A stretch of 64,000 nucleotides of DNA from a virus, in IMG/VR virus record IMGVR_UViG_3300045988_120820, positions 1 through 64,000 of that record; one strand, written 5' to 3'. The stretch's first letter is position 1, and every line of letters starts with the position of its first letter. The position numbers and the translations under genes are program-made. The notes beneath the pieces were generated by a model. It saw nothing but the letters and a program-made list of their open reading frames with translations. It had not been told where the DNA came from and ran no database searches. Below are positions 362-62,045 of the stretch, in pieces.

Positions 362-416
362 GGATTTATATCCCTCCAGCTCTTAAAAATAATTAATAAA
401 ATTATTAAAAAAGTTA

Positions 417-446
417 TTGACAAATATATCTACAATGATATATAAT
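417..446 (+). promoter_or_regulatory. sigma-A-type promoter
   Basis: TTGACA 417-422, TGATATATAAT 436-446, just downstream of junction motif at 386. Confidence 0.55.
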
Positions 447-480
447 ATAAGTATAATAAATAAAAAGGAGAATGATAAAT

Positions 481-1068
481 ATGTTAAAAGAAAAAATGAT
501 ACAATTGTTAAATGTTTTAGAAATAAAAGACTTTGAAGAAATAGAATTATTTGAAAATAATGAAAATCTAGTACGCATAGATAATGAAGAATACTTAGTA
601 TTCGACGAAGAAGAGAGAAAAGAACAATTTCAAGATTATCAAGAAGAATTAATAGACGAATTAGGACTAGACGCTTTTTCAGAATATGCAAAGGATTATA
701 TAATTAATCATTTTGTAGACCAAAACTTCTTTGACGAATCACAAGAAGAATATTGGAGAAGTTATTTAATAGATATAGAACATGAACCTTCAGAAGAGTA
801 TGAAAATAGATTAATCGAAGAAATGAATAAAAACGGATTTTCTGAAGACTATGAGTATCTTAATTACTTATGTGAACAAGACAGTATAGAATGGTTTATA
901 GACACTTTTGGCGAAGATATATTTAAACATGAAATAATCAGACATAATTTAATAGATTATGACGAAATAATAGATTGGGTGTTATATGAAGACGGCTATA
1001 GTTGTTTGGCAACATATGACGGCGTAGAAATTGAATTAGATAACTATTTTGCATATAGAGTAAACTAA
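481..1068 (+). CDS. highly acidic hypothetical protein (DNA-mimic/anti-restriction role is speculation only)
   Basis: Track ORF 472-1068; start moved to ATG 481 (AGGAG 9-10 nt upstream); very D/E-rich. Confidence 0.65.
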   Translation: MLKEKMIQLLNVLEIKDFEEIELFENNENLVRIDNEEYLVFDEEERKEQFQDYQEELIDELGLDAFSEYAKDYIINHFVDQNFFDESQEEYWRSYLIDIEHEPSEEYENRLIEEMNKNGFSEDYEYLNYLCEQDSIEWFIDTFGEDIFKHEIIRHNLIDYDEIIDWVLYEDGYSCLATYDGVEIELDNYFAYRVN

Positions 1069-1147
1069 TTATTAATCGAAGGTTTTGTGGGTTGTCCTTT
1101 AAAACTCACTGCTCTTAAAAATAATTAATAAAATTATTAAAAAATTA

Positions 1148-1177
1148 TTGACAATAAAATATAGAGTGTGTTACTAT
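1148..1177 (+). promoter_or_regulatory. sigma-A-type promoter
   Basis: TTGACA 1148-1153, TGTTACTAT 1169-1177 (18-nt spacer). Confidence 0.55.
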
Positions 1178-1211
1178 ATAAGTAAGATAATAAATAGGAG
1201 GGGAAAAGAAT

Positions 1212-1448
1212 ATGAAAAAAATGTTAGAAAATTTAAAAAGTGAATTAGTTGGTTATAAAATGAGCATGATAGAATTAGATAATTCAATGATGGGATTTGG
1301 ATTTAAAAGTATCTATGACGAAGGAACAGAAGAAAATATAATAGAGGATGGTAATGGAGTATGGACAAGTGAAAATGGAGATATACAAATATATTTAGAA
1401 GGTGATTTAGGTAGTTTGGTTGTTACAAAAATAGAGGATTTTAAATAA
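1212..1448 (+). CDS. hypothetical protein
   Basis: Track ORF; SD GGAGGGG upstream. Confidence 0.65.
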   Translation: MKKMLENLKSELVGYKMSMIELDNSMMGFGFKSIYDEGTEENIIEDGNGVWTSENGDIQIYLEGDLGSLVVTKIEDFK

Positions 1449-1487
1449 TCCTTCAGCTCAAAAAATAAATAATATTGGAGGGATTGA

Positions 1488-58908: not shown

Positions 58909-58927
58909 TTAATAAGGAGGAATTATT

Positions 58928-59158
58928 ATGGATATATATCAAGCAAAAGCAAATTATGAAAGATTAGAGGATAAGGTGGCAAAAGCATTAGGTAGTGATA
59001 GATATTTTATAAAGAATGGTAAAGTCGTTAAGATTGACGATGCCTTTGATTTATTTATGGATTTAATTGTTATAAGAGATGCTACAAAAGAAGAAATTGA
59101 ATTATATGAAGAATATCGTAAAGCTGAAGACATTTATAAAGAAATGAAATATAGATAA
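58928..59158 (+). CDS. hypothetical protein
   Basis: Track ORF; SD AAGGAGGA. Confidence 0.6.
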   Translation: MDIYQAKANYERLEDKVAKALGSDRYFIKNGKVVKIDDAFDLFMDLIVIRDATKEEIELYEEYRKAEDIYKEMKYR

Positions 59159-59172
59159 AAGGAGGTGATAAT

Positions 59173-59262
59173 GTGAATGATAGAATACATAAATGGTTTT
59201 ACATAGGTATTTGTTGTTCATTACTTAGTATTTTATTCTTTGTATTAGAAATGATTTTATAA
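59173..59262 (+). CDS. small hydrophobic peptide (29 aa)
   Basis: GTG start after AAGGAGGTGA; ..WFYIGICCSLLSILFFVLEMIL. Confidence 0.35.
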   Translation: MNDRIHKWFYIGICCSLLSILFFVLEMIL

Positions 59263-59289
59263 AAATAATTAATAATAAGGAGTGATGTT

Positions 59290-61548
59290 ATGATAGTTAA
59301 AAAAAGAAATGGGAATATAGTAACATTTGATAAAAACAAAATAATAGTAGCTATTCAAAAAGCAATGTTAGAAGTAAATATAAATACAGATAGAGCTTAT
59401 GATATAACTGAAAAGGTGTTGGATAAAATATCAGATAAAAACGAAATATCTATAGAAGAAATTCAAGATATTATTGAAGAAACTTTAATAGAAAAAAATT
59501 ATCCTACAGTAGCTAAGGCATATATACTTTATAGAGAAAAAAGAAAAAGAACTAGAGAGAACCAAGCTAGACTATATGAAGAATCTCAAAAACAAATATC
59601 AGAAATTATGGCAATGAAAAACATAGAAAATTCAAACGCAAATGTGGATGAGGCTTCATTTAGTGGCAAAAATTCCAAGGTAACTTCTTATTTTTTAAAA
59701 GAATATGCTTTGAATAATTTAATGAGACCAGAGGTTGCAAAGGCACATAGAGATGGTTTATTATACACTCACGATTTAGATAATTATGCAAGTGGGATGC
59801 ATAATTGTTTATTTATAGATTTTGAAGATTTATTTAATAATAAAGGTGGTTTTACAACTAGAAATGGTGATGTAAGAAAACCAAATGATATTATGACATT
59901 TTTTCAATTAGTAGCAGTAACATTTCAATGTGCCTCTCAATGTCAATATGGTGGAATCGCTAGTAATAAAATAGATTATGATGCATCGCCTTATGTAGCT
60001 ATAACCTTTAAAAAAAGTTTTAGAAATGCTTTAATGGATATAGATGGAATAAGTAAAGAACACGCAGAATTAATAATGAAAAATATAGAAGATACCAACG
60101 GAGACATTATAAAATTAGAAAATGAAAAGCTTAAATTATTTTATCCTAAACATTACAAAGTTGCAGAAAGACATACTATAGAAAAAACCATGCAAGGTGC
60201 AGAGTCTTTATACCACAACCTCAATACTCTTGAGTCTAGAGCAGGAAGTCAAGTTCCTTTTACAAGTATAAATTTTGGGACAGACACATCACCAGAAGGA
60301 AGATTAGTATCTAAGGCGTTATTGACAGCTAGTATAAATGGTATTGGTAAATTTAATAAAACATCAATATTCCCAATAAGTATATTTAAATATGCAAAAG
60401 GAATAAATGACAAAGAAGAAACTCCAAACTACGATTTAAAATTATTAGCTTTAGAATCTTTATCAAAAAGAATATATCCTAATTTTTGCAATGTTACAAT
60501 AGAGGGTGAAGGTGATATAAATGACCCAGATACCCAATCAGCAACTATGGGATGTAGGACGAGATTGGGATATGATATAAATGGTATGGGTTGGCACAAA
60601 TCTGGTAGAGGTAATATAACACCTGTAACATTGAATCTTGTTGATATGGGAATTAGATACGGTATTTGTTTAGGTGAAAGAGATGTTGCAGATATTGACG
60701 GATTTATGGATGAATTAGAAGAAAATCTAAAATTATCTGAAACAGCATTATTAGATAGATACGAATGGATTTGTTCTCAAAAATCTAAAAGTGGATTCTT
60801 TACTCATCACAACGGGTTAATGAAGAATCTCTTAGGAAGAACACTGAAAGATGAAGAAGATGTAAAAGAATCGATGAAACATGGCACATTAGCTTTAGGA
60901 TATATAGGAATTGCAGAATGTATGTATGCTATGTTTGGTGAAACTCATACATATAATAAAAATGTTTATAATTTCGCATTAAAAATAGTACAAAGAATCA
61001 ATTCATTTGCAAAAGAGTGTGTAGAAAGAAATCATCTAAATTTTAGTTGTTATGCTACACCAGCAGAAGGAAGTTGTTTTACATTAAGAAATAAATTAGT
61101 CGAAAAATATGGTATTATAAAAGGTGTTACAGATAGAGAATACATAACTAACTCACACCATATACCTGTGTATGAAAAAATATCTATTAAAGACAAAATA
61201 GATTTAGAAGCACCTTTTAGTAAATTAGCAACTGGTGGATATATTTTATATGTTGAATTAGAATCATCTTTTATGAATAATATAACTGCTGTTGAAAAAA
61301 TAATAGATTATGCAATGAGTAAAGATGTTTATTATTTTGCATTAAATTTTCCAATAGATACTTGTATGAATTGTGGATATTCTTCAGAAATAAAAGAAAA
61401 CTGCCCAAAATGTGGCAGTAATAAAATTGAAAGACTTAGACGTGTCACAGGTTATTTAACTACTGATTATTCTAAATTTAACAATGGTAAAATAGCTGAA
61501 GTGGAAGATAGAGTTAAACATTCTGTTGGTGATATTAATGAATATTAG
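59290..61548 (+). CDS. nrdD: anaerobic ribonucleoside-triphosphate reductase NrdD (class III)
   Basis: N-terminal ATP-cone, C-terminal CxxC..CxxC zinc site and glycyl-radical motif RRVTGYL. Confidence 0.9.
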   Translation: MIVKKRNGNIVTFDKNKIIVAIQKAMLEVNINTDRAYDITEKVLDKISDKNEISIEEIQDIIEETLIEKNYPTVAKAYILYREKRKRTRENQARLYEESQKQISEIMAMKNIENSNANVDEASFSGKNSKVTSYFLKEYALNNLMRPEVAKAHRDGLLYTHDLDNYASGMHNCLFIDFEDLFNNKGGFTTRNGDVRKPNDIMTFFQLVAVTFQCASQCQYGGIASNKIDYDASPYVAITFKKSFRNALMDIDGISKEHAELIMKNIEDTNGDIIKLENEKLKLFYPKHYKVAERHTIEKTMQGAESLYHNLNTLESRAGSQVPFTSINFGTDTSPEGRLVSKALLTASINGIGKFNKTSIFPISIFKYAKGINDKEETPNYDLKLLALESLSKRIYPNFCNVTIEGEGDINDPDTQSATMGCRTRLGYDINGMGWHKSGRGNITPVTLNLVDMGIRYGICLGERDVADIDGFMDELEENLKLSETALLDRYEWICSQKSKSGFFTHHNGLMKNLLGRTLKDEEDVKESMKHGTLALGYIGIAECMYAMFGETHTYNKNVYNFALKIVQRINSFAKECVERNHLNFSCYATPAEGSCFTLRNKLVEKYGIIKGVTDREYITNSHHIPVYEKISIKDKIDLEAPFSKLATGGYILYVELESSFMNNITAVEKIIDYAMSKDVYYFALNFPIDTCMNCGYSSEIKENCPKCGSNKIERLRRVTGYLTTDYSKFNNGKIAEVEDRVKHSVGDINEY

Positions 61549-62026
61549 TGGAATAGTGTATGATTCAGTTGTTGATGGAGAAGGTTTAAGAAATACAATA
61601 TTTGTATCGGGCTGTTTTCATTTTTGTAAAAACTGCCATAATCCACAAACATGGGACTTTAATTATGGTTATGAGTTTACAGAAGATTTACAAGATGAAT
61701 TTATAAAAAAATGCAAAGAAAATATTTTATTAAATGGAATAACTATAAGTGGGGGAGACCCTATTTATAGTTATCGAGAATTAATTCCTTTTTTAAAGAA
61801 GTATAAAAAGAAAAATCCCACACACGATATTTGGTTATATACTGGATTCAAATATGAGGGTATAAAAAACAATGAAATATTAAAATTAATAGATGTTTTA
61901 GTTGACGGAGAATATATAGAAGAATTAAAGGATTCAACATTGTCTTTTAGAGGTAGTAGTAATCAAAGAATTATAGACGTGCAAAAAAGTTTAAAAGAAA
62001 ATAAAGTAATATTATTGAATATATAA
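61538..62026 (+). CDS. nrdG: NrdG activating enzyme (radical SAM)
   Basis: MNISGIVYDSVVDGEGLR..GCFHFCKNCHN; 11-nt overlap with nrdD. Confidence 0.85.
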   Translation: MNISGIVYDSVVDGEGLRNTIFVSGCFHFCKNCHNPQTWDFNYGYEFTEDLQDEFIKKCKENILLNGITISGGDPIYSYRELIPFLKKYKKKNPTHDIWLYTGFKYEGIKNNEILKLIDVLVDGEYIEELKDSTLSFRGSSNQRIIDVQKSLKENKVILLNI

Positions 62027-62045
62027 ATTAAAAATAATTAATAAA

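Follow-up and report, generated by a model that had tools for sequence, protein, structure and literature searches.

The window, that is, the whole stretch of 64,000 nt analysed here, is the early/replication arm of a large, uncultured phage of gut type (about 136 kb, 25% GC). The initial annotation had described about 40 exact, strand-specific copies of a 15-nt motif between its genes, and exact searching found AAAATAATTAATAAA 40 times, always on the plus strand. These copies and the variants of the motif are given below with their surroundings (SD, Shine-Dalgarno sequence).

386-400 (+), exact: 24 nt past the stop of 86-361 and past a hairpin; then degenerate copy 398-412 and TTGACA promoter (-35 at 417)
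1118-1132 (+), exact: then degenerate copy 1130-1144 and TTGACA promoter (-35 at 1148)
2321-2335 (+), exact: hairpin and AATGATAGTA upstream; weak promoter-like sequence downstream
2950-2964 (+), two-mismatch variant: 14 nt past the stop of 2413-2937
3606-3620 (+), exact: stop 7 nt upstream; TTGACA 4 nt past the end
4017-4031 (+), exact: TTGACA 15 nt past the end (-35 at 4047)
4602-4616 (+), exact: in tandem with variant 4615-4629
4615-4629 (+), one-mismatch variant: overlaps the 3' end of 4602-4616
4659-4673 (+), exact: then SD and gene 4693-5316
5306-5320 (+), exact: includes the stop of 4693-5316; TTGACA 4 nt past the end
5953-5967 (+), one-mismatch variant: terminator 5901-5928 upstream; TTGACA 4 nt past the end
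7003-7017 (+), exact: promoter 6940 upstream; then SD and AP2-HNH gene 7033-7845
8515-8529 (+), exact: includes the stop of 8268-8525; SD directly after, AP2-HNH gene 8540-9166
9383-9397 (+), exact: terminator 9343-9361 before, promoter after; this terminator-element-promoter layout (9343-9397) is kept in the 11 aligned relatives
10491-10505 (+), exact: B element 10418 upstream; then variant 10524 and SD of 10546-11292
10524-10538 (+), one-mismatch variant: SD of 10546-11292 directly after
11297-11311 (+), two-mismatch variant: 4 nt past the stop of 10546-11292; then terminator 11313-11332 and promoter 11352
11481-11495 (+), one-mismatch variant: TTGATA (-35) 4 nt past the end
11864-11878 (+), one-mismatch variant: includes the stop of 11559-11870; TTGACA 4 nt past the end
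12552-12566 (+), exact: includes the stop of 12346-12558; AP2-HNH gene 12604-13377 downstream
13377-13391 (+), one-mismatch variant: touches the stop of AP2-HNH gene 12604-13377
14372-14386 (+), exact: touches the stop of 13452-14372; TTGACT (-35) 15 nt past the end
15007-15021 (+), one-mismatch variant: at the stop of sigma-like gene 14466-15020; GTGACA 4 nt past the end
15069-15083 (+), exact: then SD of sigma-like gene 15101-15682
15672-15686 (+), exact: includes the stop of 15101-15682; relatives have an extra cassette between two copies here
15917-15931 (+), exact: touches the stop of 15744-15917; then SD; left boundary of a cassette deleted or replaced in relatives
16494-16508 (+), exact: includes the stop of 15943-16500; then SD; right boundary of the cassette starting at 15917
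16703-16717 (+), exact: touches the stop of 16524-16703; then SD
17213-17227 (+), one-mismatch variant: includes the stop of 16732-17223
18998-19012 (+), one-mismatch variant: includes the stop of GIY-YIG gene 18223-19008
20883-20897 (+), exact: B element 20816 upstream; TTGACA 5 nt past the end
21441-21455 (+), exact: includes the stop of 20957-21451; then SD
21684-21698 (+), exact: stop-free frame read through by ORF 21468-21713; TTTACA (-35) 4 nt past the end
24868-24882 (+), exact: includes the stop of 24335-24874
25088-25102 (+), exact: includes the stop of 24918-25094; TTGACG 4 nt past the end
25665-25679 (+), one-mismatch variant: B element 25584 upstream; then SD of 25696-26928
28069-28083 (+), exact: touches the stop of 26942-28069; then conserved hairpin and SD
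30785-30799 (+), exact: includes the stop of 30160-30795; TTGACA 5 nt past the end
31225-31239 (+), exact: SD of 31251-31427 directly after
31953-31967 (+), one-mismatch variant: SD of 31978-33114 directly after
33605-33619 (+), exact: touches the stop of 33144-33605; then conserved hairpin and SD
34121-34135 (+), exact: B element 34021 upstream; then SD of Sak4-like gene 34152-35228
36621-36635 (+), one-mismatch variant: touches the stop of AP2-HNH gene 35857-36621
38845-38859 (+), exact: includes the stop of 37799-38851; TTGATA 5 nt past the end; left flank of an AP2-HNH cassette
39705-39719 (+), exact: touches the stop of AP2-HNH gene 38920-39705; then terminator-like hairpin; right flank, cassette missing in relative L163
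39968-39982 (+), exact: B element 39828 upstream; SD of DnaB-like helicase gene 39995-41554 directly after
42569-42583 (+), exact: touches the stop of primase-like gene 41568-42569
43900-43914 (+), one-mismatch variant: touches the stop of AP2-HNH gene 43121-43900; then SD
45811-45825 (+), exact: includes the stop of 45264-45821; B element 2 nt downstream
50025-50039 (+), exact: includes the stop of 49739-50035; then SD; junction colinear in relatives
50306-50320 (+), exact: touches the stop of 50052-50306; then SD of thyX 50335-51072; different A/T spacer in the sister clade
52754-52768 (+), exact: touches the TAG stop of AP2-HNH gene 51974-52753; in relatives lacking this gene the copy directly follows the upstream gene
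54033-54047 (+), exact: then B-like element; C5-methylase gene downstream
58178-58192 (+), exact: within ORF 57776-58240, translated K-I-I-N-K
58902-58916 (+), two-mismatch variant: B element 58752 upstream; SD of 58928-59158 directly after
59262-59276 (+), one-mismatch variant: SD of nrdD 59290-61548 directly after
62031-62045 (+), exact: 4 nt past the stop of 61538-62026; B element 1 nt downstream, upstream of tnpB

The exact coordinates of the initial annotation were right except for 58179, which should read 58178. Its list of one-mismatch variants also stands, except that 2950 and 11297 have two mismatches each and that 5953, 10524, 13719, 14643, 15007, 17213, 18998, 31953 and 56971 had been missed. 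Its estimate of less than one copy per 64 kb by chance was sound, with 0.04 copies expected from dinucleotide shuffles and 0.054 from a third-order Markov model. In a k-mer comparison such as it had proposed, the top-ranked 15-mers of the window were all shifted versions of AAAATAATTAATAAA, and the commonest unrelated 15-mer reached 5 copies. A 17-nt junction element, T[A/G]A-AAATAATTAATA-AA, has AAAATAATTAATAAA as its invariant core. The 12-nt core AAATAATTAATA occurs 53 times on the plus strand, or 73 times when one mismatch is allowed. No reverse-orientation copy had been seen, and this holds for the exact 15-mer and the exact core, with a single minus-strand copy of the core at one mismatch.

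On the one hand, the element marks gene ends. It is present at 52 of the 90 gene junctions in the window. Of the 40 exact copies, 21 include or touch the stop codon of the upstream ORF, 17 fall between genes and 2 within an ORF. As had been noted, it supplies TAA in two of three frames, in fact two TAA in each, plus T[A/G]A just upstream, and it terminates the upstream ORF in these two frames. The third frame is stop-free and is read through by two ORFs, 57776-58240 and 21468-21713, where a single one had been noted before, which weakens the proposal of a universal stop.

On the other hand, the element precedes expression signals in two layouts, with either a sigma-A-type -35 box after 4-5 nt or an SD after 0-2 nt. 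Among 503 distinct contexts in the family, a -35 box lies within 17 nt in 150 (4-5 nt away in 91, 15-16 nt away in 27), and an SD lies within 8 nt in 177, 129 of them at 0-2 nt. In the window, 14 of 19 element-promoter pairs have 3-5 nt between the end of the 15-mer, or of a variant of it, and the -35 box, a spacing that covers 13 of the 17 promoters and places the element at about -41 to -55, the UP-element register; the UP-element-like position suggested earlier is thus supported. The UP-element consensus AAAWWTWTTTTNNNAAA has 14 specified positions, 10 of which are matched by the 17-mer in the correct register (PMC2412878). When adjacent to an SD, the element extends it to AAAGGAGG. The exact 15-mer is required neither by the UP-like role nor by the SD extension. 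The CATAGGTAAT element is separate from the junction element and is probably a promoter for a phage sigma factor.

The punctuation of genes proposed for this stretch is borne out and extends to the whole phage family, which puts this 15-17-nt A/T element between most early genes, between expression units. The 17-nt element is found in about 20 related contigs as 558 distinct copies in both arms, of which 540 run with the coding strand and 9 against it, the remaining 9 being unclassifiable, so that at least 98% of the classifiable copies share the gene direction. All close relatives examined carry it, with 16-25 exact 15-mers per 11-21 kb locus (first 20 kb). The sister clade has 0 copies and, at the corresponding junctions, holds ordinary A/T spacers; the element is specific to one phage clade. 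Element positions are 92.5% identical, compared with 79.3% elsewhere in the junction. At colinear junctions, the exact core is retained in 22 of 26 pairs with flanking proteins 75-88% identical and likewise in 22 of 26 with less than 75% identity, and because the core stays exact despite such divergence, we conclude that each copy is under constraint.

The element also marks places where relatives have swapped genes. The core lies at the joint in 19 of 46 unique rearrangement joints, with degenerate variants at about 6 more, and BLAST alignment ends cluster at the edges of the element. Gene order is lost in 0.76 of relatives at element junctions versus 0.55 at junctions without it (p=0.012), and in 0.75 versus 0.44 when only gaps of up to 60 nt are considered (p=0.015). 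The segments between elements (n=494, median 672 nt) fall into 207 clusters; 51 have at least three members, and 31 of these have two or more different neighbours on each side. Cassette differences between relatives span from element to element at 15917/16494 and at 38845/39705, and at copy 52754 the 5' edge of the element is the exact insertion point of an AP2-HNH gene. Homing-endonuclease genes directly adjoin the element; all AP2-HNH genes had been said to end in GAT-TAA followed by the motif, which is true of five of the seven if TAG is admitted and fails for 7033-7845 and 8540-9166.

Considering these observations, we give a probability of roughly 40% to the reading that this is a portable junction element acting at the DNA level and doubling as micro-homology for cassette shuffling. 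It would serve as a standard boundary at which cassettes may be inserted, deleted or exchanged between co-infecting relatives. Since all copies are identical and co-oriented, they could provide the shared micro-homology for such exchange, and the property preserved would be identity between copies, precisely what a homology-dependent process needs. The likely machinery would be two proteins encoded in the window, the Sak4-like AAA_24 annealing protein of the phage and its PD-(D/E)XK nuclease. The A/T sequence would also serve the downstream promoter or ribosome-binding site. The micro-homology boundary for cassettes and endonuclease genes, one of several roles first suggested, thus gains support from the joints, the gene-order loss and the shuffled segments.

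Several points count against shuffling through the element. Intergenic spaces are compact, and a viable joint is almost forced onto or beside an element. Elements taken with 12 nt on each side make up about 31% of intergenic sequence, and therefore the 19-25 of 46 joints are only a modest excess over the intergenic null. Break points off the element exist, such as the one within gene 1488-2231, where the L130 deletion has its left end. Also, 15-17 nt is short for homologous recombination, of which no intermediate turned up.

The strong main rival is that the copies are binding sites of a specific factor or protein. Even where a junction never rearranges the copies stay exact, and recognition by such a factor would explain this more simply than selection for mobility. 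Neither a generic A/U-rich enhancer nor a generic UP role can account for 12-15 bases kept exact across diverged relatives. A purely RNA-level role is weak, as some of the conserved copies follow an intrinsic terminator and precede the next promoter. The initial interpretation as a whole is thus partly upheld, in the punctuation, the micro-homology and the UP-like position; the universal stop and a role in RNA alone are weak.

In comparison with known systems, cassette shuffling through a junction element doubling as micro-homology would resemble the modular shuffling of PeSLs. Under the rival reading, the copies would instead resemble stoperators, as binding sites for a specific factor.

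An exact search of the window for the 15-mer AAAATAATTAATAAA returned 40 copies, all of them on the + strand. This agrees with the initial annotation, which had counted about 40 strand-specific copies at gene junctions and had expected well under one by chance; the expected number was 0.04 in dinucleotide shuffles and 0.054 under a third-order Markov model trained on the window. The commonest 15-mers of the window are all shifted forms of AAAATAATTAATAAA, and the check proposed on other A/T 15-mers gave only five copies for the most frequent unrelated one against these 40. The coordinates first reported needed small corrections: the copy placed at 58179 starts at 58178, two variants listed as one-mismatch copies (2950 and 11297) carry two mismatches, and nine one-mismatch copies had been missed.

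The 12-mer AAATAATTAATA forms the invariant core of the repeat, with 53 occurrences on the + strand of the window and none on the - strand; when up to one mismatch is allowed, there are 73 + copies and one - copy. Based on the alignment of the 53 core copies, we define a 17-nt element, T[A/G]A-AAATAATTAATA-AA. Position -3 is T in 39 of the 53 copies, position -2 is A in 38 and G in 11 but never T, position -1 is A in 48, and the two bases 3' of the core are A in 51 and 44, respectively; the aligned copies show no conservation outside these 17 nt. The element is a pure A/T mirror repeat (AAATAAT followed by TAATAAA), with neither dyad symmetry nor a tyrosine-recombinase core site. It contains TAA twice in each of two frames and leaves the third open. 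The copy at 58178 is indeed read through, as had been described, but it is not the only such case, since ORF 21468-21713 also reads through a copy; a universal three-frame stop is ruled out by this open frame.

The window corresponds to bases 16-64015 of a 136,390-bp metagenomic scaffold (ENA ERZ28567972 scaffold_54). Its GC content is 25%, its purine skew is strong, and all of its genes lie on the + strand; the gene strand flips after about 67.5 kb of the scaffold, and the lysis and tail genes are found in that arm. Pfam searches identified genes for replication and nucleotide metabolism (DnaB-like helicase, DnaG-like primase, ATP-dependent DNA ligase, NrdD and ThyX), DNA methylases (a Dam-type enzyme and an intein-interrupted C5 methylase), recombination proteins (a Sak4-like AAA_24 protein, a PD-(D/E)XK nuclease and a beta-CASP nuclease), regulators (two sigma-like proteins and the antirepressor-like ANT/Rha and AntA) and mobile-element proteins (a GIY-YIG protein, TnpB and seven AP2-HNH homing endonucleases). 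The genes that bear on the following argument are listed here.

Genes of the window referred to in the text
6033-6932, + strand, Xer-like tyrosine recombinase
7033-7845, + strand, AP2-HNH gene
8540-9166, + strand, AP2-HNH gene
10546-11292, + strand, antirepressor-like protein
12604-13377, + strand, AP2-HNH gene
14466-15020, + strand, sigma-like protein
15101-15682, + strand, sigma-like protein
18223-19008, + strand, GIY-YIG gene
19583-20497, + strand, ParM/Alp7-like actin
28909-30147, + strand, beta-CASP nuclease
30160-30795, + strand, antirepressor-like protein
35857-36621, + strand, AP2-HNH gene
38920-39705, + strand, AP2-HNH gene
43121-43900, + strand, AP2-HNH gene
51974-52753, + strand, AP2-HNH gene

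The Xer-like recombinase, the ParM/Alp7-like actin and the two antirepressor-like proteins suggest a plasmid-prophage lifestyle. A megablast search against isolated phages gave no match, and the nearest helicases, from phages of Clostridioides, Thomasclavelia and Lactococcus, are only 24-27% identical. In 185,579 species genomes, searches for a prophage or host with the helicase and with a 21-nt pattern of element plus Shine-Dalgarno sequence (SD) gave only single chance hits. Several other features of the window were recorded. The C5 cytosine DNA methylase gene at 54132-56246 is split by an intein with a LAGLIDADG endonuclease domain, and a phage gene at 37799-38851 encodes an alpha-amylase catalytic domain (E = 1.8e-53). 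A RAGATH-18 RNA (Rfam RF03064, 50.1 bits) at 63288-63349 lies directly 3' of the tnpB gene (62114-63244) and presumably belongs to its guide-RNA scaffold; the guide region 3' of it shows no relation to the 15-mer, and Rfam gave no match at the element, RAGATH-18 being its only hit.

About 20 IMG/VR contigs of 80-140 kb share this gene set at 65-98% nucleotide identity. The conservation that the initial annotation had proposed to look for in related phages is borne out: the element is present in all of these contigs, with 16-25 exact 15-mers in each locus of 11-21 kb across the first 20 kb. Among 558 distinct copies of the family, 540 are co-oriented with the coding strand, nine are opposed and nine are unclassifiable. 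Eight of the nine opposed copies lie at two orthologous sites (the arm boundary or the lysis region), and the ninth looks like a chance match; on either side of the point where the arms converge, the copies run with the local genes. In the late arm there are just 2-4 copies per 14 kb, mostly paired around endonuclease-like inserts, and relatives free of the insert show a one-mismatch version at that junction. In a sister clade, known from contigs of 114-128 kb with a ThyX 70-72% identical, the element is missing altogether and the equivalent junctions have ordinary A/T spacers; more distant clades lack it as well. We consider it established that the element is genuine, that it is confined to one clade and that its orientation is locked to gene direction. 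Replication and transcription orientation are inseparable here, since the two arms run outward from a 2-kb non-coding region, and the strict placement between genes speaks against a replication-oriented signal of the Chi or KOPS type. In one relative (L089, IMGVR_UViG_3300045988_126140), this region of about 2 kb at 3300-5300 contains short repeats between the two divergently transcribed arms and may be a replication origin. The first early promoter past it has no upstream element, and the series of elements begins just after that promoter.

The element occupies 52 of the 90 gene junctions of the window. On the upstream side, 21 of the 40 exact copies contain or touch the stop codon of the preceding gene, four start 1-30 nt past it, 13 are farther away and two lie inside an ORF, so that 38 are outside ORFs or at an ORF end. 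On the downstream side, we classified 503 distinct contexts of the family. An SD follows within 8 nt in 177 of these, with a spacing of 0-2 nt in 129, and a sigma-A-type promoter follows in 150, with 4-5 nt to the -35 box in 91 and 15-16 nt in 27. A second + strand repeat, the B element with CATAGGTAAT, follows in 29 contexts, and weaker signals, hairpins or terminators in the remaining 147. Within the window, 19 pairs of an element (0-2 mismatches) and a promoter are spaced by 3-5 nt in 14 cases, 15-16 nt in four and 11 nt in one, and in two of the four wider pairs a two-mismatch copy, at a spacing of 3-4 nt, fills the gap. The element never overlaps a -35 or -10 box, either in these pairs or in the family contexts, and over the first 20 kb nearly all of the strongest promoter matches have an element upstream. 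At a spacing of 4-5 nt it spans roughly -55 to -41, where a full UP element would lie. At the SD-adjacent copies, its last three A's lengthen the SD to AAAGGAGG. Among the 38 non-internal exact copies, a start codon lies 10-40 nt past the element end in 16, with a separate SD in between, and at least 52 nt away in the other 22, usually past a promoter.

The order of signals varies. The arrangement terminator-element-promoter is found at 9343/9383 and 5901/5953, and that at 9383 is kept in all 11 aligned relatives, while element-terminator-promoter is found at 11297/11313/11352; terminators also directly follow the copy at 39705 and further copies in the family contexts. Between 300 and 5400, composites of about 80-100 nt consist of a G+C-containing hairpin, (C)CAGCTCTTA, an optional AATGATAGTA, the 15-mer, ATTATTAAAAAAGTTA and a TTGACA promoter. 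The hairpin with CAGCTCTTA before some copies was considered as a tRNA 3' end, which was ruled out by a tRNA scan that returned no tRNA. Directly 3' of two other copies, at 28084-28135 and 33620-33670, there is a conserved hairpin followed by an SD (AGAGGGA..TCCCTCTAGAAAGGAG), a possible translational operator or RNase site. The element stands where expression units begin and where ORFs end, which we regard as established. Judged from the sequence, the promoter-linked copies, at least, must act at the DNA level, since their register to the -35 box is fixed and conserved copies stand between terminator and promoter.

The B element is about 65 nt long and reads (AAAT)TCATAGGTAATTTTT-N10-12-TGTTAATAC-N-GTAATATAAGGAGGTGAT-N3-4-ATGTA[AG], with a start-stop pair (ATG-TAA or ATG-TAG) 3' of its SD-like part.

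B elements of the window, all on the + strand
10418, 20816, 25584, 31578, 34021, 39828, 45828, 49265, 54061, 57717, 58752 and 62047, B element
19368, partial copy

It often precedes, by 60-140 nt, a unit of 15-mer, SD and gene, and the sister clade has an analogue, GGTTCAC-N14-TTAAGTATATTATAAATATAAGGAG. The B element is probably a promoter class for one of the two phage sigma-like proteins. At 49325-49360, in the leader that separates one B element from gene 49385-49738, AAATATTAATA is repeated as three tandem 11-nt units.

To consider constraint on individual copies, we compared junctions that are still colinear between the window and a relative. The exact 12-nt core was retained in 22 of 26 pairs where the flanking proteins are less than 75% identical, and again in 22 of 26 pairs where they are 75-88% identical; by our own estimate, at about 25% site divergence, neutral drift would spare the core in just a few per cent of pairs. 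Identity is 92.5% inside the element and 79.3% over the rest of the junction. The copies are thus either maintained one by one or continually homogenised, and a recent origin alone does not account for them; we regard it as established that each copy is under selection.

The mosaicism of the early arm among the relatives is extreme, and the element is a frequent boundary of it. When relatives are aligned to the window, 35 of 237 distinct alignment starts and 42 of 210 distinct ends fall within 5 nt of an element edge, where about 1% is expected. We defined a joint as two adjacent alignments in a relative that map to non-adjacent positions of the window; the core is present at 19 of 46 unique joints, and degenerate versions are present at about six more. 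Gene order was compared with proteins, since nucleotide probes were too noisy owing to paralogues and divergence, and junctions beside endonuclease genes were left out. The mean loss of adjacency was 0.76 at junctions with the element and 0.55 at those without (Mann-Whitney p = 0.012), and at gaps of up to 60 nt it was 0.75 and 0.44, respectively (p = 0.015). The 494 segments between elements (median 672 nt) form 207 clusters, 51 of which have at least three members, and 31 of these 51 have at least two different neighbours on each side. Single events resolve to the following copies.

Gains and losses at element copies
15943-16500, + strand, gene missing in relative L129 and replaced by an AP2-HNH gene in relative L126, both joints lying within copies 15917 and 16494
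38860-39705, + strand, AP2-HNH cassette missing in relative L163, where one copy remains
51974-52753, + strand, AP2-HNH gene missing in relatives L108 and L115, the insertion point being the exact 5' edge of copy 52754
15672, + strand, element copy at which relatives hold an additional cassette between two copies

Five of the seven AP2-HNH genes end in ITD-stop directly on the element, and the presence of these genes varies among relatives. The earlier suggestion of a micro-homology boundary is thus supported by the joints, the loss of adjacency and the shuffled segments, with two restrictions. The excess of joints over an intergenic null is modest because the elements with 12 nt on each side cover about 31% of intergenic bases, and in such compact intergenic spaces a viable joint is nearly forced onto or beside an element. 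Some break points also lie within genes; the left break point of the deletion in relative L130 is one, which rules out clean element-to-element deletion as a general rule. We regard it as established that the element is the preferred site of gene-order change.

We tentatively favour, with a probability of about 0.4, the reading that the element is a portable junction element whose identity across copies serves as micro-homology for cassette exchange. Identical copies would supply the homology through which cassettes are exchanged, the Sak4-like and PD-(D/E)XK phage proteins are candidates for the exchange machinery, and the A/T sequence of the element may double as an aid to the promoter or the ribosome-binding site.

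The strongest rival, which we consider possible though rather unlikely, is a stoperator-like site. By analogy, a phage- or host-encoded protein would bind the asymmetric 15-17-nt site in one orientation, modulating initiation upstream of promoters and blocking or gating elongation inside operons; the combined outcome would be silencing or timing across the genome, with recombination at the sites as a by-product. An asymmetric site with many intergenic copies, specific to a clade and, in both arms, running with transcription in at least 98% of copies, has the anatomy of the L5 stoperators (PMC9283540). The exact core at stable junctions, despite diverging flanks, fits such a site better than it fits a portable junction element. 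The fixed register to the -35 box, the copies in little-transcribed stretches between terminator and promoter, and the ANT/Rha, AntA, ParM-like and Xer-like proteins, which hint at a temperate or plasmid-prophage lifestyle, are also in its favour. However, the sites lie upstream of the -35 box and not over it, and Pfam gave no repressor-like or DNA-binding candidate among 70 window proteins, where many small ORFs are without any match. The helicase and 21-nt pattern scans of the species genomes showed no relative of the phage, prophage or otherwise, and one unchanged operator across relatives with genes 65-98% identical would be unusual for an immunity system. Moreover, this reading does not predict the terminator-followed copies or the copies at the 3' ends of endonuclease genes.

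A further and more doubtful proposal is that the element is recognised by a dedicated system, encoded by the phage, which reads each junction in one orientation. Such a system could be a cassette-exchange machinery, resembling an integron but acting on a 15-17-nt unstructured site, or a stop-start punctuation of transcription like that at the gene junctions of non-segmented negative-strand RNA viruses. If this were true, the early arm would be an organised array of interchangeable cassettes and not the outcome of random mosaicism.

We consider improbable an RNA-level signal for gene ends and gene starts, in which the element would split the polycistronic RNA into units as the target of an endoribonuclease, as a site of factor-dependent termination or 3'-end formation, or as the site of a translational regulator or enhancer by the SD. 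The strict sense-strand orientation, the position between an upstream stop codon and a downstream SD, the double TAA in two frames preceded by T[A/G]A, and the location in the leader directly before the SD in units with a B element would all suit it, and the beta-CASP nuclease gene at 28909-30147 is present. On the other hand, about one third of the copies lie upstream of a promoter at a fixed -35 register, which is a property of DNA, and conserved copies stand between an intrinsic terminator and the following promoter. The stop-free frame, through which two ORFs are read, and the fact that A/U-rich enhancers need no exact sequence further weaken this reading.

Even less probable is a phage-specific promoter, read for example by a sigma-like protein that requires no -35 box, with transcripts that begin at the element's 3' end. 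Conserved co-oriented intergenic repeats of phages mostly prove to be promoters; the intergenic repeats of halovirus HF2 are one such case (PMC8707807). In addition, the window encodes two sigma-like proteins (14466-15020 and 15101-15682), and AATAAT within the element resembles a -10 box, in which case the start would fall on the last A. However, the SD at 0-2 nt in 129 contexts would leave almost no leader, terminators follow some copies directly, and the element also stands at junctions of tightly packed operons and behind endonuclease genes, at their 3' ends. The B element, with its analogue in the sister clade, is the better sigma-dependent candidate. Furthermore, the sigma-like proteins diverge to 49-72% identity while the element is unchanged; within the family, the two proteins of L190-L205 share 49-96% and 64-72% identity with those of the window (14466-15682). 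Cross-clade scans for the sigma genes returned only contigs of the element-bearing clade. The least probable reading, an AP2-HNH recognition or insertion site as the primary cause, with spread and uniformity arising through homing and co-conversion, would draw on the seven paralogues, five of them ending on the element, on the gene-free site that places an insertion exactly at the 5' edge of copy 52754 and on the paired late-arm copies around endonuclease-like inserts, but only about 10 of some 55-60 junction copies are next to an endonuclease gene, the insertion leaves the sites intact and would entail self-cutting unless the phage is protected, and homing leaves unexplained both the promoter and SD register and the conservation at endonuclease-free junctions.

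The origin of phage mosaic boundaries is debated between random illegitimate recombination followed by selection and recombination at short conserved boundary sequences. The element-bearing family would be an unusually clean test case, in that one exact 15-17-nt sequence stands at more than half of the early junctions, stays constant amid diverging and reshuffling genes and is missing from the sister clade. Whether the element is a crossover point, whether it has a specific reader and whether homing endonucleases exploit it become questions for direct test. The element would also offer a ready standard junction for engineering phages of low-GC hosts.

A literature search for the sequence in a phage context returned only unrelated matches, and we compared the element with known junction systems. 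Integrons are one-directional arrays of small genes, each followed by a conserved attC site that forms the cassette boundary; attC is an imperfect inverted repeat that forms a hairpin and is recombined by the integrase IntI. A tyrosine recombinase gene is nearby in the window as well (6033-6932). In contrast to attC, the element has no inverted repeat or hairpin and nothing is conserved past 17 nt, and the recombinase looks Xer-like.

The bacterial UP element has a 17-nt consensus, AAAWWTWTTTTNNNAAA (PMC2412878). The element is alike in its 17 nt, A/T content and terminal AAA and in ending 4-5 nt before the -35 box; it matches 10 of 14 specified positions, the register is observed at the promoter-adjacent copies, and a second class of copies lies one helical turn further upstream. 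However, UP elements are degenerate and tied to promoters, whereas the element is exact and stands without a promoter in at least 177 contexts. The start-associated sequences (SAS) of cluster K mycobacteriophages are 13-nt asymmetric repeats in one orientation upstream of genes, mostly in the non-structural half, that contain the SD and lie 3-7 nt from the start codon (PMC3203893). Both repeats sometimes include the upstream stop codon, and SAS are conserved across subclusters beside unrelated genes, but the element has no G and no AGGAG or SD and lies upstream of the SD or of a whole promoter. The stoperators of cluster A mycobacteriophages (L5 gp71) are asymmetric 13-nt sites, present in dozens per genome in short intergenic spaces and oriented with transcription (PMC9283540). 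There, a monomeric immunity repressor of the phage binds the sites and blocks transcription in an orientation-dependent way, and the site also overlaps the early lytic promoter, where it serves as operator. The element is likewise short (15-17 nt), asymmetric, intergenic, transcription-oriented and clade-specific, with dozens of copies. It differs in being pure A/T, in overlapping stop codons and in its position, which is 3-5 nt (most pairs) or 11-16 nt upstream of the -35 box and outside the promoter itself.

By analogy, the closest known parallel is the promoter-early stem-loop (PeSL) of T4-type phages (PMC2839356, PMC4122927). It is a repeated unit of a sigma-70-type early promoter and a stem-loop terminator or attenuator; recombination between such units reshuffles genes whose function is unknown and also gives rise to mini-circles. 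Both are repeated intergenic units that begin at the upstream stop codon, include an A/T-rich stretch and lie upstream of a sigma-70-type promoter (PMC2839356, PMC4122927); both are concentrated in hyperplastic early regions, beside small genes with no known function, and in both the insertions, deletions and replacements between relatives terminate at the repeats. The composites at 300-5400, within the first 5 kb where the unit is hairpin, element and promoter, look most like PeSLs. On the other hand, the conserved unit here is a 15-17-nt unstructured A/T sequence that is neither promoter nor stem-loop. Neither a -35 nor a -10 box is part of it. About 30% of contexts (150/503) have a promoter next and 177 have an SD instead, and at least about one third of the copies are promoter-less and stand directly on an SD. 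Hairpins are found only at some units (386, 1118, 2321, 4017, 4602 and 9383), and the copies are identical to one another, beyond matching a consensus. In summary, on sequence grounds, the element groups with the known conserved intergenic repeats of phages yet is distinct from every one of them, being an exact A/T sequence, short and unstructured, that is independent of any single promoter type and that appears to link the stop codon to an expression signal and to mark cassette boundaries across a whole uncultured family.
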